Part shown: piece by piece, positions 3,292 through 18,090 of the stretch
How positions within the stretch are numbered: position 1 is the first letter of the stretch
How the letters are laid out: the number at the start of each line of letters is the position of its first letter
Source of the DNA: a virus
Lineage: Duplodnaviria; Heunggongvirae; Uroviricota; Caudoviricetes
Strand: one strand, 5' to 3'
Virus record (IMG/VR): IMGVR_UViG_2537562190_000023
Length of the DNA: 20,641 bases
The notes under the pieces: model-generated
Seen by the model: only the letters and a program-made list of their open reading frames with translations
What the model was told of the DNA's origin: nothing
Databases searched by the model: none
Position numbers and translations under genes: made by a program

Positions 3292-3653
3292 AAATAAAGG
3301 GATAACGATGATAGTTTGAGAAAAACAGAAATAACACTTTTGTGGCAAAGCATGGTGCCGGGTGCCTCCCGGTGAATTCAGTACCAGCACCTGAATCCGC
3401 GATTATCCCATATACCTGGTTGCTGATTGCCCCTCCGCACAGGGGGATTCACCATGCAGTAGTATTTTTAATAAACAGTAAACAAAAAAATCAAGCATTA
3501 TGCAGGCTGTTTCTTTTTATCACCGGCCACAGCAATACCACAATGCCGCAGACCAGCCCCCATCCGCCAGCACCGACATGATTCTGCTGGTGAAATCCAC
3601 CATCACCACCAGAAACAGCAGGAGTGCAGCCACAGCCAGGCGCAGTTTTACCG

Positions 3654-6853: not shown

Positions 6854-7114
6854 TCACTCATCTTCAAAAGCAGAAAAACCAGCCTTAATCCCAGCGTCTT
6901 TCAGAGACGGCAACGATGTGACAAATTCATTTGCACGCAAAATAAAACCATCCGTCACAAGCCCATCCACAAAATGAATTAACGCAGCTCCACTCTTCCT
7001 TTGTTGAGACTGTAAACATTTAATACGGCAGTGGCTGACAATAGCGCCATTCTCAACGCGCACAGTATAGAGGCCATCTTCACTAAAAATTTCACGTAAT
7101 TCTTCGATTTTCAT
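6854..7114 (-). CDS. Hypothetical protein, 86 aa (position matches rem of Qin-type prophages)
   Basis: ATG at 7114 (MKIEELREIF...) with SD GGAAGGA. Lies between the hok locus and the DUF968 gene, as in the hokD-rem-ydfU order of Qin as I recall it. Confidence 0.5.
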   Translation of the reverse strand: MKIEELREIFSEDGLYTVRVENGAIVSHCRIKCLQSQQRKSGAALIHFVDGLVTDGFILRANEFVTSLPSLKDAGIKAGFSAFEDE

Positions 7115-7230
7115 CAACAGAATCCTTCCAGATAAATAGCACTCCCCTGTTCGGGGTCCATCCCTCTTCTCCCTGCGCGCTACTTAAGTATTTTTGATTC
7201 TATTCCGGCGCCGTCCGGAACTTCAAACGC

Positions 7231-7266
7231 GTTGAAAATAAAAACAAAAACCCGCCGAAGCGGGTT
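7231..7266 (-). terminator. Rho-independent terminator at the 3' end of the hok mRNA
   Basis: Minus-strand hairpin AACCCGC-UUCG-GCGGGUU (7-bp stem, plus 7249-7266) followed by UUUUUGUUUUUAUUUU (plus-strand A-run 7231-7248). Confidence 0.55.
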
Positions 7267-7334
7267 AAGTGCGGGTGCGTTGAGGATGCCTGACACATCA
7301 GAGGTGGCGAGGGATTTCTCCCCCGCCTGGTCTC

Positions 7335-7490
7335 TTACTCCTCAGGTTCGTAAGCTGTGAAGACAGCGACCTCCGTCTGGCCGGTTCGGATTCGTACCTC
7401 GCAGAGGTCTTTCCTCGTTACCAGTGCCGTCACTATGACGGTTAAACAGATGACGATCAGGGCGATTAACATCGCCTTTTGCTGCTTCAT
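7335..7490 (-). CDS. hok: Hok/Gef-family type I toxin, 51 aa; an in-frame upstream extension to 7547 forms a mok-like leader ORF
   Basis: MKQQKAMLIALIVICLTVIVTALVTRKDLCEVRIRTGQTEVAVFTAYEPEE is a canonical Hok/RelF-type sequence (single TM helix, conserved Cys, acidic C-terminus). The 70-codon ORF 7335-7547 starts at ATG 7547. Confidence 0.85.
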   Translation of the reverse strand: MKQQKAMLIALIVICLTVIVTALVTRKDLCEVRIRTGQTEVAVFTAYEPEE

Positions 7491-7534
7491 AGCCTGCTTC
7501 TCCTTGACCTTTCGGTCCGTAAGAGGCAATCTAT

Positions 7535-7590
7535 ATGTGACGAGCATATAGGGGCCTCACTTCGATTTATAGTCGGGTGGGGCTTTTATC
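7535..7590 (+). ncRNA. Predicted Sok-like antisense RNA overlapping the mok translation-initiation region
   Basis: Plus-strand TTGACC at 7504-7509 could serve as a -35. A possible terminator hairpin (CCUCAC/GUGGGG with one G-U pair, 7556-7582) is followed by CUUUUAUC. The region is antisense to the mok start at 7547. Boundaries are approximate. Confidence 0.3.
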
Positions 7591-7792
7591 TATCTGCCGT
7601 TGGTGTTCATGCCCGAGGCAGATAGCCTCAAGCACCCGCAGCAATTCTACTTAACTCTGCCGTTACAGCAAGCCGTTTTCGTCCGATATGGGAATTCCCA
7701 TATCGGAATGAATTCAGTTCACCTGGCGAGGCTTAGCGTACAATTTTTTCCGTTTTGTGAGCTGCCCCTACATGCCGCTGGCGCGGCATCCG

Positions 7793-7822
7793 GAAAAAGA
7801 ATCCACGTCCTGAAGGACGTGG
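7793..7822 (-). terminator. Rho-independent terminator directly after the binding-protein gene
   Basis: Perfect hairpin CCACGTCC-TGAA-GGACGTGG (7803-7822), 6 nt after the stop codon, followed on the minus strand by AUUCUUUUUCC. Confidence 0.5.
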
Positions 7823-7828
7823 AGGATG

Positions 7829-8587
7829 TCAAGTGCCTTTCCTGGTCCAGCCATATTTTTTGAATGCAGGCGCCGCTTCATCGGTTTGTAGCCATTCTGC
7901 AAATCGACGGGTTTCATCATTTGCATCCTGACGTACTGTAATGTTCATATCACGCCATATCACGTAGTCTGGCGCTATTTCCACGACATCACCAATTTCT
8001 GGATTACTGGCTGCCCAGTCAGCCCAGGTTATCCAGACATCTGCTTCAGGCTGATTCTCAAGAGCCTTACGTGCAGTTCCGCTATTGGGCGCATATAAAA
8101 TAATATTTTTTCGGATTGCGGCGACAGTTTCTATATTCCCTTTACGTCCGGCAATATCTTCCCAGACGCCAGTGCCTGATGTATTACTGGTACCACCACC
8201 ATCATTAACAATTACGCCAATCCCGGGTCTGGTCAGGTCGTCAATACTCCGGATATTTTTAGGATTACCTTTCTTTACCAGTAAAATACTTTTTCGCAGA
8301 TAAAGAGGCTGAATATCTTTTTCACTGAAGCTGTCTTTATGGTCCCGAATGATAGCCAGAGCAGATTGTTCTGATGCGCCAAACAAGATATCTGCATTTT
8401 TTTTGGCATCTTCATTCCATTTGTTCTGTGGGCCGTAATGAACGTTCACTATAATACCTGTTTTTTCGGCATAAAGTTTGGCTGCATCAAGCAAGGCTGT
8501 ATGCGGGCCACCAGGACCATACAGATTGATATCAGCATAAGCAGCAGAAGACAGGAATATTAAAAAACCTGCCATTATGTTCCTCAT
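7829..8587 (-). CDS. Periplasmic substrate-binding protein of the ModA/AcfC-like family, with signal peptide; orphan (no permease or ATPase partner in the window)
   Basis: 252 aa. N-terminal signal peptide MRNIMAGFLIFLSSAAYA. Sequence pattern fits ModA/TupA/AcfC-type binding proteins as recalled. Strong SD AAAAGGAG. The flanks are visibly AT-rich. Confidence 0.7.
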   Translation of the reverse strand: MRNIMAGFLIFLSSAAYADINLYGPGGPHTALLDAAKLYAEKTGIIVNVHYGPQNKWNEDAKKNADILFGASEQSALAIIRDHKDSFSEKDIQPLYLRKSILLVKKGNPKNIRSIDDLTRPGIGVIVNDGGGTSNTSGTGVWEDIAGRKGNIETVAAIRKNIILYAPNSGTARKALENQPEADVWITWADWAASNPEIGDVVEIAPDYVIWRDMNITVRQDANDETRRFAEWLQTDEAAPAFKKYGWTRKGT

Positions 8588-8719
8588 AAAAAACTCCTTT
8601 TATTGGTTATCATGAAATAAAGTTATAAACACTACAAATAATATATATTACATCCAGATAAACTTATCCGACTTTACCTCGTGCATAGCTTGTTATTTAA
8701 AGTTAACAAAATAAGGAAA

Positions 8720-8779
8720 ATTATACGCATATTGAAGAGTATAAACCTTACATGTTGATTACATTTTTGTAATCAACAT
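8720..8779 (-). promoter_or_regulatory. Promoter of the binding-protein gene: perfect -10 plus an upstream palindromic operator
   Basis: Minus-strand TATAAT (plus 8720-8725) about 130 nt upstream of the ATG. Inverted repeat ATGTTGATTACA-TTTT-TGTAATCAACAT (12-bp arms, 8752-8779) overlaps the -35 position. Confidence 0.4.
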
Positions 8780-9446
8780 CCTGTTTGGAATAGCCAGCCT
8801 TTAATGGATAACTATTTCTGACAATGCAATGAGTATAATCAAGTCCATCTTCCACTGAGAATTAGAGGCGGCATGCTTTTTCCGACTCTTGCCGGATATC
8901 CGTAATTGTCCATAATCTGCAGATTTATACCTTCAGCATGACCTGCCAGCGAAAATTTGTCCGGTGTTTCTACGGAAATAACATCAAAAGTTACACGCAC
9001 TCGCGTTACCGTGTAGACCTACTTTCCTGCACTTGCAAGATCACAGTGGTGTAACCGTAACAGGAATTTATTCTCTGGACCGGCAGTAAATCCCTGAGTG
9101 GCGTGGTTCCCATATCAATTTCCAGCCAGGCAGCCTCCATTGCCAGCGTACTGGCTGGAGCCATGACCTGCCCTTTAAATCTGGCCCGACCATCCCACCG
9201 GACGTGTTCTTCTCCCCTGAACTTAGGTACAGTCATCTCCAGTGGCACAAAAGTGTCAGCGCCATGATTTTTGACCGTTATCGCGCTACGGATATTTTGT
9301 TGACTGGTGAAAATTACCCCGCAGAATCAGGCTTATTCCCTTAACCCGGGCTTTCATCCTGACCGCCGCCTCACTACGACCAATCAGACTGCCGATGCAT
9401 TTTACCTTCATTGTTAGTATCATAATTTCAGGCCTGCACCATCCGC

Positions 9447-10193
9447 TCATTGCCCGGACTTCCGACAAATCCCGGCAACCATATCTCGGTGCTTGTTCAG
9501 CTCCCGCAGCGCGGCGCAGACTCGCTCCCACTTCTGGACATGACTTTTCGCCCGACGCAATTCGCGGTTTGCCATATGCAGCGATGGTAAAACCAGGTCA
9601 TCCGCTCGCGTTTCAGTAAACGATGGCAACGATTGCACAATATCAGCCACAGTTTCTGTTTTAATATCTTCCTGTGTTGCAGCTTCCTGTACTGGTAACG
9701 CAACACCTGCTGACTGAGGAAAGGCTTTACCATCATTTTCCGTTACCGGCACGGATTTCGGCTCTGCTGGTAACTTATCGCCCGGCATGCAGTAACGAAA
9801 TTTACCGTTCTGGTTTACACGAATCAGACGACCTTTGCTGATTGCCATTGCCAGCGTTGAAGCCACTTTGCGTGATGTTGTACCGAACAACGTAGCCAGC
9901 TCATCAGCCGTTTGTGGTCCGCGTTGTTCAACCGTCGCAGTTAAATCGCACTCCGAAATTTTAGCGACTGTTGCCGTGGTGGTTTCTTCCGACAGTTCTG
10001 CCGGCGCTGGCTGTTCCTGCTGAACGTTGTTATAAGCCACACGCCAGGTGTATACGCTTTTATCAACGAAGCCAGCCTTTCTCAGTTCCCACAGCTCGTT
10101 CAGCACTTCTTCACGACTGATATCAAGTCGCGCAGCCAGCTCTACCGACGTGGCTTTTCCCATCGCTTTCAGTGCGTCAAAAACAGTCTCCAT
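9447..10193 (-). CDS. Hypothetical prophage protein with two winged-helix-like segments, 248 aa
   Basis: ATG at 10193 with strong SD GGGAGGAAA. Two HTH-like stretches ([30 protein letters not shown] and [33 protein letters not shown]). Lies directly after the replication genes. Confidence 0.6.
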
Positions 10194-10225
10194 AAATTTC
10201 CTCCCGGTAAAAATTACTTCTCAAA

Positions 10226-10891
10226 TCAGACAAACCCAGCCGCTTTCCGGCGTTCATATTCCTGTTTCAGCAACTCAATTGGCGTTGGTCCCGCAGGACG
10301 TTTGGGTGCTGCCAGTTGTCGCCGGACAGGCGGAACACTCAGGCCGTTGCTAACATGCTTTGCCCATTTCGTCAGCTGCCGTTCTGCAAGCCGTTTTAAC
10401 TCCCCTTCGGTCATCTGGCGTTCAATCCCCTTTGAACGCATCTCGAGGCAAATGTGATACAGCACAGGCTGAGACCACGGGTACTTATCACTTCCGTCGT
10501 ATCGCCAGGACTCATTGCGCCAGCGGCGGTACTCCTCCATCACAGCATCCACCGTCAGACCAAATGGATTGGCCCCGCTTTCCGAAATCAGCGCCACAAA
10601 CTCAGCCAGGTCCGGAGGCCATGTTTCACCCGCCCGGCAGCAGTCCATGCACTGGCGGCAGACCTGCCGGATTTGCTGCTCAGTCATCGCGCCAATCTGT
10701 GCAATCCAGAGCTTCGAAGGTGCGGCCCCGTTCTTCTGGGTCCAGCGGTTCGAATAAACCTCCCCCATGAGCTCCCACAGCTTCCAGGCCGTTTCCGTCG
10801 CTGATAAATCCGTTTTCACGTTCCCACTGCTCACGTGCTGCCCGAATTTCCTGAACTGCCCGTGATGCGGTTCCACCTGGTGCTGCTGCAT
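10226..10891 (-). CDS. Replication protein P-like (DnaB helicase loader)
   Basis: Similarity to lambda P as recalled (YPW motif, ELKRLAERQL, VPPVRRQL blocks). ATG at 10891 has SD AGGGGG, but this start overlaps the 3' end of the initiator gene by about 210 nt. An alternative coupled start at 10687 (ATGACTGA) would give 153 aa. Confidence 0.6.
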   Translation of the reverse strand: MQQHQVEPHHGQFRKFGQHVSSGNVKTDLSATETAWKLWELMGEVYSNRWTQKNGAAPSKLWIAQIGAMTEQQIRQVCRQCMDCCRAGETWPPDLAEFVALISESGANPFGLTVDAVMEEYRRWRNESWRYDGSDKYPWSQPVLYHICLEMRSKGIERQMTEGELKRLAERQLTKWAKHVSNGLSVPPVRRQLAAPKRPAGPTPIELLKQEYERRKAAGFV

Positions 10892-11720
10892 GGTTTACCC
10901 CCTTGCTGACTGGTTTAACCTGCGCCCTGACGTGATTTACGTGACGGGCGAATTTCTGCTCCCACTGAACCTGCGTAAACACTTTCCCCTCCGCTGCCCA
11001 GTAGTCCCGGAATGCGGCAAGTTCAGCAGGTGTGAATTCTGTCTCCGGCAAAGCCATCCCCCACAACGCAGCCCGTCGTCGAAAATCCCGTGACGGATAC
11101 CAGTTATCGGTCATCGGAAATTTTCCGATGGGTTCGCTCAGGCCATCCAGGAATACAGGGGGGACTGCCTGTAACGACAAAACTTCCTGCTCACTGGTCG
11201 GAGCACTCTCGCGTGCGTTATGTGTGGGGTTTAAATCTTTGGGTTCCTTTGGGTTCCGTGATCCGTTTTTGGGTGTCTTTGATGGAAAATTTGGGTGTCT
11301 TTGGTTATTTTCCATGCAGCAAAGAGTTCCGTTTTTGGGGCTGTTTTGTGCTGAAACATAACCGTTTTCGGTTCTGTTTTTATTAACAGTACCAATTTTA
11401 CCTACCTTTAAAGACTCCCGTTTTTGGGTGTATTCATCCTCGGTAACACTTTCTTCAACACCGATAAGTCGGTACACCACAATTTGTTTTGTCCGGCCTT
11501 TTCTCTCACCGGTATCAACAATTAACCCAATCTCCATCAGGTGTCGTAAGCTGTCCTGCACAGTCTTTTTGTTCAGTTCCGTTACTTCTGCCAGTGCAGA
11601 TACAGACGGGTATGCACACAAATCGGCACCGCACATATCAGCAAGCCAGGTCAATACTGACTTACTGGATGAACTGCCGGTTTTCACCTTTTTAGCCCAT
11701 CGTAGCGCATCGATACTCAT
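10680..11720 (-). CDS. Replication initiation protein (lambda O-like): N-terminal HTH, low-complexity linker encoded over the iterons
   Basis: ATG at 11720 (MSIDALRWAKK...). N-terminal HTH typical of phage initiators. The linker NKNRTENGYVSAQNSPKNG... is encoded by the iteron DNA, as in lambda O. The six-frame track's earlier start at 11795 is TTG. Confidence 0.6.
   Translation of the reverse strand: MSIDALRWAKKVKTGSSSSKSVLTWLADMCGADLCAYPSVSALAEVTELNKKTVQDSLRHLMEIGLIVDTGERKGRTKQIVVYRLIGVEESVTEDEYTQKRESLKVGKIGTVNKNRTENGYVSAQNSPKNGTLCCMENNQRHPNFPSKTPKNGSRNPKEPKDLNPTHNARESAPTSEQEVLSLQAVPPVFLDGLSEPIGKFPMTDNWYPSRDFRRRAALWGMALPETEFTPAELAAFRDYWAAEGKVFTQVQWEQKFARHVNHVRAQVKPVSKGVNHAAAPGGTASRAVQEIRAAREQWERENGFISDGNGLEAVGAHGGGLFEPLDPEERGRTFEALDCTDWRDD
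11237..11435. repeat. Iteron array (candidate origin of replication) inside the initiator gene
   Basis: Six or more copies of a TTTGGG core (consensus about CCGTTTTTGGGTGTCTTTG) at 11238, 11248, 11268, 11290, 11334 and 11423, spaced at roughly 10, 20, 22, 44 and 89 bp (near helical-turn multiples). Confidence 0.55.
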
Positions 11721-12530: not shown

Positions 12531-12938
12531 ATGAAAAACGAAACCTTCGGTGCTCGCCTCTTACATAGGCGTAAAAAATTAAAACTGTCTCAGGCCGCAT
12601 TAGGTAAGCTGGTCAAAGTGGCTCACGTAACAATTTCTCAATGGGAAAGAGATGAAACACAGCCGGCGGGGAAAAGATTATTCGCACTGAGCCAAGCGCT
12701 TCAGTGCTCACCGACTTGGCTTCTTTTTGGGGATGAAGATAAACAACCAGGCGAACCGATCCCGAATAATCAGCCAGCCATTCTGACAGAAGATCAAAAA
12801 GAGTTACTTCAACTGTTCGACGCACTGCCTGACTCAGAGCAAAAGGCCCTGTTGTCAGAGATGCGTGCTCGAGTTGAAAATTTCAACAAACTTTTTGAAG
12901 AACTACTTAAAGCTCGCAAAAGAAGCGCAAACAAATAA
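12531..12938 (+). CDS. Prophage repressor, XRE-family HTH, 135 aa, no S24 peptidase domain (cI functional analogue)
   Basis: N-terminal HTH (LKLSQAALGKLVKVAHVTISQWERDETQP). Divergent from the Cro-like gene. Flanked on both sides by the same operator motif. Too short to carry a LexA-like autocleavage domain. Confidence 0.75.
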   Translation: MKNETFGARLLHRRKKLKLSQAALGKLVKVAHVTISQWERDETQPAGKRLFALSQALQCSPTWLLFGDEDKQPGEPIPNNQPAILTEDQKELLQLFDALPDSEQKALLSEMRARVENFNKLFEELLKARKRSANK

Positions 12939-12989
12939 CCCCTTTTTTCTCCACACCCTGTAATAAAAAGCACAAACTTTCAAACACTT

Positions 12990-13062
12990 GTGTTTTTTAC
13001 ACCAAAAAACTTAGGTTTTTCTACATAAGAATCTTGACCATATGCCTTAGGTTATTCTAAAT
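12990..13062 (+). promoter_or_regulatory. OL/pL-like operator-promoter downstream of the repressor gene
   Basis: CTTAGGTTTTTCTAC at 13010-13024 is a near-identical copy of the OR element (reverse complement of 12491-12505). A second CCTTAGG at 13045-13051. -35 TTGACC at 13034-13039 with a weak -10 17 bp downstream. Confidence 0.4.
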
Positions 13063-13139
13063 TTCACTCATCAAGACACCGCACGGTGTTCTCAGCAAAC
13101 AGTTCCGCTACTCCGGCGTTAAGGGGAAATGAGGTCAGC

Positions 13140-13295
13140 ATGGATACTATCGATCTTGGCAGCAACGAATCTCTGGTGTACGGCGTGTTCCCAAACCAGG
13201 ACGGCACGTTCACCGCGATGACGTATACCAAAAGCAAAACGTTTAAAACCGAAAATGGTGCCCGTCGCTGGCTGGAAAGAAACTCAGGTGAGTGA
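13140..13295 (+). CDS. Hypothetical early protein, 51 aa
   Basis: ATG at 13140 with GAGG 5 nt upstream. First ORF after the pL-like promoter. The six-frame ORF begins earlier at a GTG. Confidence 0.4.
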   Translation: MDTIDLGSNESLVYGVFPNQDGTFTAMTYTKSKTFKTENGARRWLERNSGE

Positions 13296-13299
13296 TATG

Positions 13300-13407
13300 G
13301 ATTTCGACACAATCATGGAAAAGGCTTACGAAGAATACTTCGAAGACCTTGCCGAAGGCGAAGAGGCTCTCAGCTTCAGTGAGTTTAAACAGGCGCTTTC
13401 CAGTTAG
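13300..13407 (+). CDS. Hypothetical small acidic protein, 35 aa
   Basis: ATG 5 nt after the previous stop. MDFDTIMEKAYEEYFEDLAEGEEALSFSEFKQALSS. Below the ORF-track length cutoff. Confidence 0.3.
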   Translation, partial: DFDTIMEKAYEEYFEDLAEGEEALSFSEFKQALSS

Positions 13408-13454
13408 GCAAAATCTAACGGCTGATAAGCGAAACAGCACCGCGAGGAATCAGT

Positions 13455-13694
13455 ATGCATAAACGAGAACCCGTCATCATCGCGCCAGACTATACCGATG
13501 ATGAACTTTATGAGTGGATGCGCCAGAAAATTAATGCAGCGCAGGATCTGAAATGGGCCAATGAAGCCAGGGCTAAGCAGGCTGAAAAATCTGTCCGCTC
13601 TGGAGCAGGATATCACCAATTTGGAAAAAGCAGCGGCATTAAGCATTGCCAGAATGATTACATACCCGCGTTAATAGCTAACCAACGAGGATAA
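13455..13694 (+). CDS. Hypothetical early protein, 79 aa as read; possible frameshift near 13585
   Basis: Strong SD GAGGAA 5 nt upstream of the ATG. The N-terminal 45 residues look protein-like. After an A5 run the +1 frame encodes a more helical-looking tail (LSALEQDITNLEKAAALSIARMITYPR). Confidence 0.5.
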   Translation: MHKREPVIIAPDYTDDELYEWMRQKINAAQDLKWANEARAKQAEKSVRSGAGYHQFGKSSGIKHCQNDYIPALIANQRG

Positions 13695-13724
13695 GGTTGG
13701 TAATTAAGGAGTTCTCTACGGGTC

Positions 13725-13762
13725 AGGTGGAGTGCGTGCGCCGGACACGGGTGAGCATCCGG
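13725..13762 (+). terminator. Candidate plus-strand intrinsic terminator closing the first early-gene block
   Basis: Bulged hairpin CGTGCGCCGGA / TCCGGCACG (13725-13756) followed by TTCTTT. Confidence 0.4.
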
Positions 13763-13809
13763 CACGTTCTTTAAAAATCTGGATAGTCCCAACTTATTTA
13801 AACGGTTAA

Positions 13810-14154
13810 TTATCTTGAGTTCATCCAGAACTTATTATTGCAAGCGGGGCAAAAAGTACGAAAATGAGCATCAAAGCGCATTATTTCCATTGGTTGCAGT
13901 ACAGATATTACCTTTTTTCCAAAACATTGTGGGCAAAGATGCACTGTTATCTCGGTATCGCCTATAAATTGCTTCTTGGAATACACAAGAGTTCCAGAAT
14001 CAAGCTTGTTAAGTTTGTAACCTTCCGCCTGTTGCTGAAAGTCTTCTATCTCTGCAATTTTTGCTTTGAGAGATGCGGCTTCTTCCTGATAAGAGCGCAC
14101 CATCTCAATGAGCGATACGCATTCAAACTGAACAGACGTAAGTTTTGAAAGCAT
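13810..14154 (-). CDS. Antisense-oriented zinc-ribbon protein, 114 aa (coiled-coil N-terminus, CPQC-x22-CPAC)
   Basis: Protein-like composition with a predicted coiled coil (EEAASLKAKIAEIEDFQQQAEGY) and a C4 zinc ribbon. Lies on the strand opposite to the surrounding early operon, in an AT-rich stretch. No obvious SD before the ATG at 14154. Confidence 0.55.
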   Translation of the reverse strand: MLSKLTSVQFECVSLIEMVRSYQEEAASLKAKIAEIEDFQQQAEGYKLNKLDSGTLVYSKKQFIGDTEITVHLCPQCFGKKVISVLQPMEIMRFDAHFRTFCPACNNKFWMNSR

Positions 14155-14280
14155 ATCGCTGACAGCGGAATTTATCTCAGTTTGAGTTTTGCATTCAGAA
14201 TACCCTTTGCCATTACCGCAGTTTCTTTGATTGCCGACATTGCTGCTGAGAACTCAACTATCACGTTACATACTCTTCTC

Positions 14281-14324
14281 GTTGTTGGGGATATCCAGAT
14301 TATACAAATTTCTTGTTGTTGGGG
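14281..14324 (-). promoter_or_regulatory. Candidate promoter for the zinc-ribbon gene, flanked by a 10-bp direct repeat
   Basis: Minus-strand perfect -10 TATAAT (plus 14299-14304). Exact direct repeats GTTGTTGGGG at 14281-14290 and 14315-14324, one on each side of the -10. Confidence 0.35.
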
Positions 14325-14806
14325 AATAACAGGAACCACCTCGCCTGACGTGGTTAAAAGCAGGCACACAACGCGAAAGCGTACGGCGAGGTAGCTGGTT
14401 CATAGATAGCCTGTCGTTAAATTTTCGTCGACCGTGCGCTTCCGGTTGTGGCAGTCCGCGAAATGGCGCGGCGGTAAGTATGGCTGGGGTTTCCTCCATT
14501 GCTCCAGAAAATGCACCGGGTTGTCAGGTTGACCATACGCTTAAGTGACAACCCCGCTACAACGCCCTCTGTTATCAATTTTCTGGTGACATTTGGCGGT
14601 ATCAGTTTTACTCCGTGACTGCTCTGCCGCCCTTTTTAAAGTGAATTTTGTGATGCGGTGAATGCGGCTAAGCGCACGCGGAACAGTTAAAACCAAAAAC
14701 AGTGTTATGGGTGGATTCTCTGTATCCGGCGTTAATTGTTAACTGGTTAACGTCACCTGGAGGCACCAGGCACTGCATCACAAAATTCATTGTTGAGGAC
14801 GCGATA

Positions 14807-16876: not shown

Positions 16877-17764
16877 TCAGGCTGCCAGATCATCGTTTCC
16901 GATGGAAGCATAATAAGCTTTTTCTGCTTCTGCCGGGGGAGTATGGCCCAGCCTTTCCAGCAATCGTCGATTGTTATACCAGTCCACCCACGTGAGTGTG
17001 GCCAGTTCCACTTCTGCACGGTTTTTCCAGCTCTTACGGTGTATTACCTCCGCTTTGTAAAGACCATTGATGCTCTCCGCCATCGCGTTGTCATACGAGT
17101 CGCCAGTACTCCCTGTTGATGCCAGTAATCCGGCTTCCTTAAGCCGCTGCGTGTAGGCCAGCGATACATACTGAGAACCTTTATCACTGTGATGGATTGT
17201 GCCGGACGGCCGACGGGCCCACAACGCCTGCTCCAGTGCATCCAGCACGAATGTTGTTTCCATGGATGATGAGACCTGCCATCCCACGATGTATCCGGCG
17301 AACACATCAATGATGAACGCCACATAAACGAAGCCCTGCCATGTGCTTACCCAGGTAAAATCAGCCACCCACAACTGGTCTGGACGTTCTGCCACGAACT
17401 GACGGTTTACGCGGTCGCATGCGGCAACGGCTTTCCGGCTGACGGTAGTGCGGACCTTTTTACCCCGGAGAACACCGGCAAGTCCCATAACCGCCATGAG
17501 ACGTGCCACAGTGCATCTGGCCACTCTGATACCTTCCCGTAACAACTGACGCCAGACTTTACGCACACCGTATACCTTGTGATTTTCATCGTATACGCGC
17601 TGTATCTCTTTCTTCAGCCAGTCATCGCGCTGCGCACGGGCACTGCGTTTATCCGGATAATGTCGCTGTTGCTGACAGTGGTAATACGTTGACGGGGCAA
17701 TATGCAGTTCGCTGCATACCGGTCCGACCCCGTACTGCTCACGCAGCTTATCCAGCAGTGGCAT
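16877..17764 (-). CDS. IS629 transposase OrfB (DDE catalytic domain)
   Basis: 295 aa beginning [29 protein letters not shown] and ending ASIGNDDLAA, matching IS629 OrfB as recalled. ATG overlaps the orfA stop (TAATG). Confidence 0.9.
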   Translation of the reverse strand: MPLLDKLREQYGVGPVCSELHIAPSTYYHCQQQRHYPDKRSARAQRDDWLKKEIQRVYDENHKVYGVRKVWRQLLREGIRVARCTVARLMAVMGLAGVLRGKKVRTTVSRKAVAACDRVNRQFVAERPDQLWVADFTWVSTWQGFVYVAFIIDVFAGYIVGWQVSSSMETTFVLDALEQALWARRPSGTIHHSDKGSQYVSLAYTQRLKEAGLLASTGSTGDSYDNAMAESINGLYKAEVIHRKSWKNRAEVELATLTWVDWYNNRRLLERLGHTPPAEAEKAYYASIGNDDLAA

Positions 17765-18090
17765 TATTTTTTCCAGAGGCGGTCGAACTCCGCCTTCGCA
17801 AAATAAGCGGAAGCCTGGCGAAGGATATCGTTACTGCGGCGCAGTTCACGATTTTCACGTTCCAGCTCTTTCAGACGCTGACGTTCAGCGGTGGTGAGTC
17901 CACCATCACCACTCCCGGTATCCCGCTCATGCTGGCGAACCCAGACACGCAGAGTCTCCGGCGTACAGCCAATCTTTGGGGCAATGGAACAAATTGCCGC
18001 CCACTGTGAGTCATATTCATCCTGACTTTCCAGAACCATACGAATCGCCCGCTGACGGACTTCGGGGGAAAAACGAGTATTTTTAGTCAT
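17764..18090 (-). CDS. IS629 transposase OrfA (HTH / leucine-zipper part)
   Basis: 108 aa [59 protein letters not shown]..., matching IS629 OrfA as recalled. An A6 run sits at the orfA/orfB junction, where IS3-family -1 frameshifting occurs. Confidence 0.9.

Follow-up and report, generated by a model that had tools for sequence, protein, structure and literature searches.

Remnants of a PapH/PixH-type fimbrial subunit gene and of a small phage DNA-binding protein gene upstream of paa/adfO in an Escherichia coli lambdoid prophage

The window, meaning the whole stretch of 20,641 nucleotides that was analysed, is part of an E. coli lambdoid prophage with its early-right genes on the minus strand. 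The gene order is Cro-like, YdaT-like, O-like, P, DUF1627, a degenerate stretch, paa/adfO and hokD/sok (Table 1). Identity over positions 8750-9500 is 99.9% to chromosomal prophages of many STEC/EHEC strains; to the deposited PPompW / Stx2a-associated phages it is 98.3%. On one side of the degenerate stretch lies the DUF1627 gene, whose product matches PF07789 (DUF1627) with an E value of 1.9e-95 and carries an N-terminal winged-helix/HTH domain (HTH_20) at residues 4-44. On the other side lies a "moron" whose product of 252 aa is the AcfC-family adhesin Paa/AdfO with an SBP_bac_11 domain. The same gene is z2053 of O-island 57 in strain EDL933, where it has been described beside ckf/hok (PMC8565820). 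The literature on adfO/paa, z2053 and pixH describes adfO and ckf in OI-57, and nothing was found there on the intergenic relic that is the subject of this report. At the 3′ end of the DUF1627 gene homology to most other DUF1627 genes ceases at 9474-9481, some 27-34 nt short of the stop codon, and the ~10 terminal codons of the window gene are unlike those of its relatives, which indicates a mosaic boundary within the tail of the gene.

Table 1. Features of the degenerate stretch and its flanks (window coordinates)
Feature	Position	Strand	Remarks
DUF1627 gene (the winged-helix gene of the earlier note)	9447-10193	-	Intact; annotated WP_001368628.1
5′ remnant of a gene for a phage DNA-binding protein of 84-93 aa	9279-9450	-	90% nt identity to L008 3489-3625
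Filler, 25 nt (ACGGTCAAAAATCATGGCGCTGACA on the minus strand)	9254-9278	.	Between the two relics
Internal fragment of a PapH/PixH-type fimbrial minor (terminator) subunit gene, pseudogene	8789-9253	-	85% nt identity to intact pixH
Lesion 1, 10-nt deletion relative to intact pixH, frameshift	9086-9087	-	From alignment; in all 42 IMG/VR copies containing the site
Lesion 2, in-frame TAG for CAG (Gln) of intact pixH	9019-9021	-	From alignment
Lesion 3, 5-nt deletion relative to intact pixH, second frameshift	8852-8853	-	From alignment
paa/adfO cassette ("moron")	7730-8787	-	paa CDS 7829-8587, AT-rich upstream region, terminator 7802-7823
Perfect 12-bp inverted repeat, ATGTTGATTACA-TTTT-TGTAATCAACAT	8752-8779	.	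8-10 nt inside the right end of the cassette

An earlier note, made from the letters alone, described 8860-9446 as degenerate DNA devoid of an intact gene, and this description holds. No open reading frame longer than 81 aa lies inside the region, and no intact frame with a non-canonical start is present. The two broken peptides quoted in that note are real and both lie on the minus strand, MTVPKFRGEEHVRWDGRARFKG within an 80-aa ORF at 9006-9248 and MKVKCIGSLIGRSEAAVRMKARVKG within an 81-aa ORF at 9286-9531. Three-frame translation shows the frame that bears similarity jumping between minus-strand frames 1 and 2, with stops in all frames. As the note had also stated, ribosome-binding sites are missing: neither of the quoted ATG codons has a properly spaced Shine-Dalgarno sequence, a GGAG abutting the ATG at 9236 and nothing preceding the ATG at 9411. 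The composition is likewise not AT-rich, with a G+C content of 0.47-0.51 over 8851-9450 versus 0.287 over 8551-8850, the paa upstream region. The proposed limits were right as to degeneracy and too narrow on the left, where the fimbrial relic extends to 8789 and PGAP draws its pseudogene to 8748. The suggestion of a decayed gene was correct in kind; the assumption of a single relic was not, for sequence comparison identified two ancestral genes of different origin, one for a PapH/PixH-type subunit and one for a small phage DNA-binding protein, whose remnants are joined at 9254-9278.

Judged by similarity that far exceeds chance, the left part of the stretch is a fragment of a PapH/PixH-type terminator subunit gene. 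It aligns with the intact 588-bp pixH genes of three loci (L003, L004 and L007), which encode 195 aa, at a megablast E value of 1e-130. The repaired translation of 8789-9281 matches PapH (PDB 2J2Z_B) over PapH residues 3-160 of 173 with a phmmer E value of 3.8e-52; for the product of an intact homologue the value is 3.5e-80. PapH acts as terminator/anchor, and the pix organisation is pap-like (PMC12388093). The intact 588-bp gene occurs in about 267 E. coli records, chromosomes as well as plasmids, and one copy, that of plasmid pEB2 from strain B7A, bears the annotation PixH. The gene ranks second among the structural genes of a PapB-family-regulated chaperone-usher operon of the PapB-A-H-C-D-J-F-G type, in the order regulator, major subunit, pixH, usher, chaperone, J (fibrillin subunit), F (minor subunit) and adhesin. 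Such Pix-like operons with intact pixH are carried by chromosomes and by IncF plasmids. In a collection of 5.8 billion sequences the best intact protein is only 75% identical to the relic, and no closer living source was found there. Profile searches of Pfam and NCBIfam with the repaired relic returned no family, the relic being too degenerate and gapped for those profiles; its identification comes from DNA similarity and from phmmer against the PDB.

The IncF plasmid L004 (NZ_JBVDMH010000002.1) carries two divergent Pix-like operons, at 12537-14472 and 6963-8153, each with a pixH-like gene. The second copy is about 69% identical to the relic at the nucleotide level, and dS between the two copies on this plasmid is about 2.7.

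The fragment has lost both ends of the gene. It lacks the first ~24 codons of intact pixH, including the start codon and signal peptide, and its homology to pixH stops ~12 codons short of the normal stop codon, because the paa cassette abuts at that point. Between these ends lie two frameshifting deletions of different sign and an in-frame TAG (Table 1). The first conserved Cys is replaced by Ser in the window (APASTL) and is kept in other copies of the relic. The two deletions, this TAG and a further TAG in the adjoining phage gene are common to L001, L002 and all of the IMG/VR contigs that contain the region (42/42). Since every copy examined shares these lesions, they predate the spread of the prophage family. 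Subsets of the copies have decayed further, through a 1-nt deletion at 8986 and through new nonsense codons at 9212 and 9239, and changes in the relic within the lineage number 11 nonsynonymous, two of them nonsense, against 5 synonymous. The dN/dS ratio is 0.38-0.43 between the relic and intact pixH, compared with 0.07-0.10 among intact pixH genes. A less decayed copy was found neither in 576 E. coli records at >=95% identity nor in 44 IMG/VR contigs, and a search for copies at intermediate identity (90-95%) found none. All copies of the region are at least 97.7% identical, so that their conservation carries little information. Across copies of the block, identity ranges from 91% to 100% in the DUF1627 gene and from 97.9% to 100% in the paa cassette plus relic.

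The relic thus belongs to the PapH/PixH lineage by descent and is not a functional member of the family. In homology it resembles PapH and PixH clearly (85% at the nucleotide level, 75% in amino acids to the best intact protein, besides the PapH match given above). The genuine genes, however, have an uninterrupted reading frame, a start codon and a Sec signal peptide, none of which the relic has. They also encode a conserved cysteine pair and a C-terminal strand (…AALRFKLDYE) for chaperone-assisted folding, an arrangement that the relic does not retain. Finally, PapH and PixH are encoded in a chaperone-usher operon, whereas the relic has the DUF1627 gene, paa and hokD as its neighbours and lacks usher and chaperone genes around it. 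Several ORFs inside the relic have been deposited publicly as proteins (P0105-P0107) under misleading names such as "nuclease PIN"; these database entries are annotation artefacts.

The right part of the stretch is of phage origin. In other prophages that bear DUF1627, the DUF1627 gene is followed immediately by a small gene for a "DNA-binding protein", and in one of these prophages (L135) an intact copy, WP_077630125.1, occupies the same position as the remnant. The remnant resembles this 84-aa protein both in its position after DUF1627 and in homology. Over 9279-9438 it shares 90% of its nucleotides with the 5′ part of the phage gene. Its intact relatives measure 84 aa (P0007) and 93 aa (P0004), and the similarity to the P0007-type protein is 85% identity over about 41 residues. 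In the window the frame is open as a 54-aa ORF at 9286-9450, the ATG at 9450 overlapping the stop codon of DUF1627 as ATGA; PGAP calls it a CDS for a hypothetical protein, WP_001443694.1. It ends at a premature TAG (9286-9288) where the intact relatives carry CAG, and homology to the phage gene is gone seven bases further on, at 9279. In the intact relatives the protein starts at MKVK. The corresponding 41-aa MKVK form in the window stops after the residue that matches position 41 of P0007 and matches no Pfam family, and the remnant is also without an NCBIfam match. The only recognisable domain of P0007, by contrast, is a C-terminal HTH of the Sigma70_r4_2 type (PF08281) at residues 55-77, which the window remnant does not reach. 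The TAG, the loss of homology and the missing HTH together identify the 54-aa "hypothetical protein" as a truncated remnant.

Between the two relics lies the filler, which in a three-way view has homology to neither the phage gene nor pixH; the fetched comparator loci contain not one of its 14-mers. Beyond the fimbrial fragment the paa cassette of ~1.06 kb begins almost without a gap, the pixH fragment starting one or two bases past its right end (8787/8789). The paa-like loci of IncF plasmids (L005 and L006) are 86-89% identical to the window only from 7758/7766 to 8787/8791, and short plasmid matches push the left end of the cassette to about 7722-7730. The prophage and two unrelated IncF plasmid contexts thus agree on where the cassette begins and ends. 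No transposase was found in the cassette, and no terminal repeats are apparent. In none of the fetched plasmid loci does pixH lie beside the paa cassette. As in other moron or cargo insertions of lambdoid phages, paa is a self-contained unit with its own AT-rich upstream region and terminator, placed in the early-right region by hok/ckf. It differs from them by the unrelated fimbrial gene fragment that hitch-hikes at its upstream edge.

The perfect inverted repeat inside the right end of the cassette is adjacent to the breakpoint with the relic and precedes paa by about 165-190 bp. It is conserved in both plasmid copies (L005 and L006) and is kept in a further plasmid, L010, despite differing sequence between the repeat and the gene. 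The repeat is a candidate operator or cassette-end feature.

The limits of the foreign DNA are defined by the empty-site prophage L135. Its backbone is shared with the window over 7247-7729 and 9279-10900, and between them, where the window has the 1,549 bp of 7730-9278, L135 carries small phage genes over 2,811 bp, with the intact DNA-binding gene among them. Insertion of the cassette in situ into an intact pixH was considered and rejected: on the far side of the cassette no similarity to pixH or pixC rises above that of shuffled sequences, and phage backbone extends up to 7729. As no remnant of pixH or pixC lies beyond the cassette, the phage at no time contained a complete pixH that was split afterwards. 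A donor molecule with pixH next to paa was sought among the plasmid hits and in other species. The plasmid hits include none except for one phage-derived 15-kb record, and the 80 paa-homologue loci that were fetched from other species, of 220 matched in all, include none either; outside the prophage family no molecule with the pixH::paa junction was found. Since IncF plasmids carry paa-like cassettes as well as Pix-like operons, a plasmid is a plausible donor, and the pixH fragment and paa probably arrived together from a plasmid of the IncF type.

These observations fit the following sequence of events. In an ancestor of the family of lambdoid prophages that includes PPompW and CP-933O and resembles OI-57, illegitimate recombination would have joined a foreign block of 1.55 kb into the region of small genes that follows the DUF1627 gene. 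The block (7730-9278) would have consisted of the paa/adfO cassette, an internal 465-bp fragment of a pixH/papH-like gene and 25 nt of filler. Its arrival would have replaced about 2.8 kb of phage genes and cut off the 3′ half of the adjacent gene for the 84-aa DNA-binding protein. The pixH fragment presumably entered already devoid of its start codon, signal peptide and last ~12 codons, and a fragment that arrived without both ends could never have made a pilus subunit in the phage. Later drift would then have added the two frameshifting deletions and the in-frame stop, and in some copies further stops and a frameshift. The fragment may persist only through its location between a retained phage gene and a selected adhesin gene. 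The stretch is thus very probably non-functional scar DNA left by a recombination event, with no working element in it, and we infer that it has no function in the phage today.

The reading that comes closest to challenging this view takes the 54-aa ORF as a real, expressed small protein, a truncated N-terminal domain coupled to the DUF1627 gene and still active to some degree, for instance by interfering with full-length paralogues that co-resident prophages encode. Such a protein, and likewise the activity suggested for it, must be considered unlikely. The ATGA overlap with DUF1627 would allow translational coupling, PGAP calls the frame a CDS, and every full copy retains both the ORF and its TAG. 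With copies at least 97.7% identical, however, conservation is weakly informative here as well. Variable sites of the ORF within the lineage stand at 5 nonsynonymous to 5 synonymous, a slight shortfall of nonsynonymous changes against the expectation under pure neutrality, in a tiny sample with too few sites to interpret. Against the reading, the frame is closed by a CAG-to-TAG nonsense change after which homology is lost, and it is deprived of the sole recognisable DNA-binding motif of its family. The ATG that corresponds to the MKVK start of the intact relatives is not preceded by a Shine-Dalgarno sequence in the window. Nor is the ORF uniformly maintained, since in at least one cluster, P0107 (8 member sequences), it is frameshifted internally and reads through into the fimbrial relic, one entry being a 147-aa fusion.

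Another reading, raised as a structured RNA in the earlier note, is that the stretch encodes a functional RNA or a cis-regulatory element, such as an sRNA, an antisense RNA or a region that regulates or insulates paa. The position of the stretch lends this some appeal: with the phage early-right operon upstream of it and the paa regulatory region immediately downstream, it is probably transcribed by read-through, and the window does contain sRNA genes elsewhere (sok, DicF and STnc100). However, Rfam finds nothing in the region, either in a search of the whole window at gathering thresholds or in one of 8500-9600 at E<=1, and a strong match to a known ncRNA is thus not present. The z-scores of the minimum free energy of 8860-9446 are -1.47 on the minus strand and -0.73 on the plus strand, within the noise of shuffled sequences. 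Promoter-like motifs number 4 versus 4.1 in shuffles, and terminator-like motifs 2 versus 1.8. The plasmid paa-like cassettes end at 8787-8791 and are without the relic sequence, which indicates that paa does not need the stretch. Moreover, the sequence is fully explained as remnants derived from coding DNA. An RNA or regulatory role is accordingly hard to credit, and harder than a small protein.

Slimmer still is the chance of a more specific role for the 54-aa fragment, in which it would be translated via the ATGA overlap and would serve as a dominant-negative or decoy partner for full-length paralogues of other EHEC lambdoid prophages. If true, a cryptic prophage would influence neighbouring prophages. 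That the fimbrial sequence might still function through programmed frameshifting or stop-codon read-through is so improbable as to be effectively refuted by its anatomy: set against a residual protein similarity to PapH alone are the missing start codon, signal peptide and C-terminal strand, two frameshifts of different sign with an internal TAG, the Cys-to-Ser change in the window, the extra nonsense and frameshift mutations of other copies, and the absence of a usher or chaperone gene nearby.

The preferred reading, a recombination scar, is known in kind and largely in fact. RefSeq/PGAP already flags the equivalent of 8748-9281 as a pseudogene, "fimbrial protein; frameshifted; internal stop" (e.g., C6P70_RS30280 in NZ_CP027388.1). 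That annotation does not name the type of fimbrial subunit, does not mark the boundaries of the block and does not see the 54-aa ORF as a truncated DNA-binding gene. What the present analysis adds is the exact kind of subunit, the existence of a second relic and the limits of the block, 7730-9278. Annotation can be tidied accordingly, the pseudogene becoming a PapH/PixH-type fragment and the 54-aa "hypothetical protein" a truncated DNA-binding gene, not an independent gene. The foreign block of 1.55 kb in which the virulence cassette paa/adfO sits has defined ends. The fimbrial fragment can usefully serve to mark the lineage of prophages that carry paa. It may be a fossil of the capture of paa from an IncF plasmid with a Pix-type fimbrial locus, and it hints at a fimbrial or plasmid stage in the history of paa before the gene reached the phage. 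Nothing here suggests new biology; the scar is an ordinary one.

Further features were observed elsewhere in the window. Rfam matches above gathering scores are the sok antitoxin RNA at 7488-7637 (103.9 bits), DicF at 14581-14632 (77 bits), STnc100 at 3317-3483 (101.6 bits) and the ALIL pseudoknot at 17693-17809 (120.3 bits). Just upstream of the hok/sok locus, the phage backbone at 7682-7707 forms a perfect 26-bp palindrome, TCCGATATGGGAATTCCCATATCGGA, a stretch that is annotated as a 34-aa hypothetical protein in related prophages.
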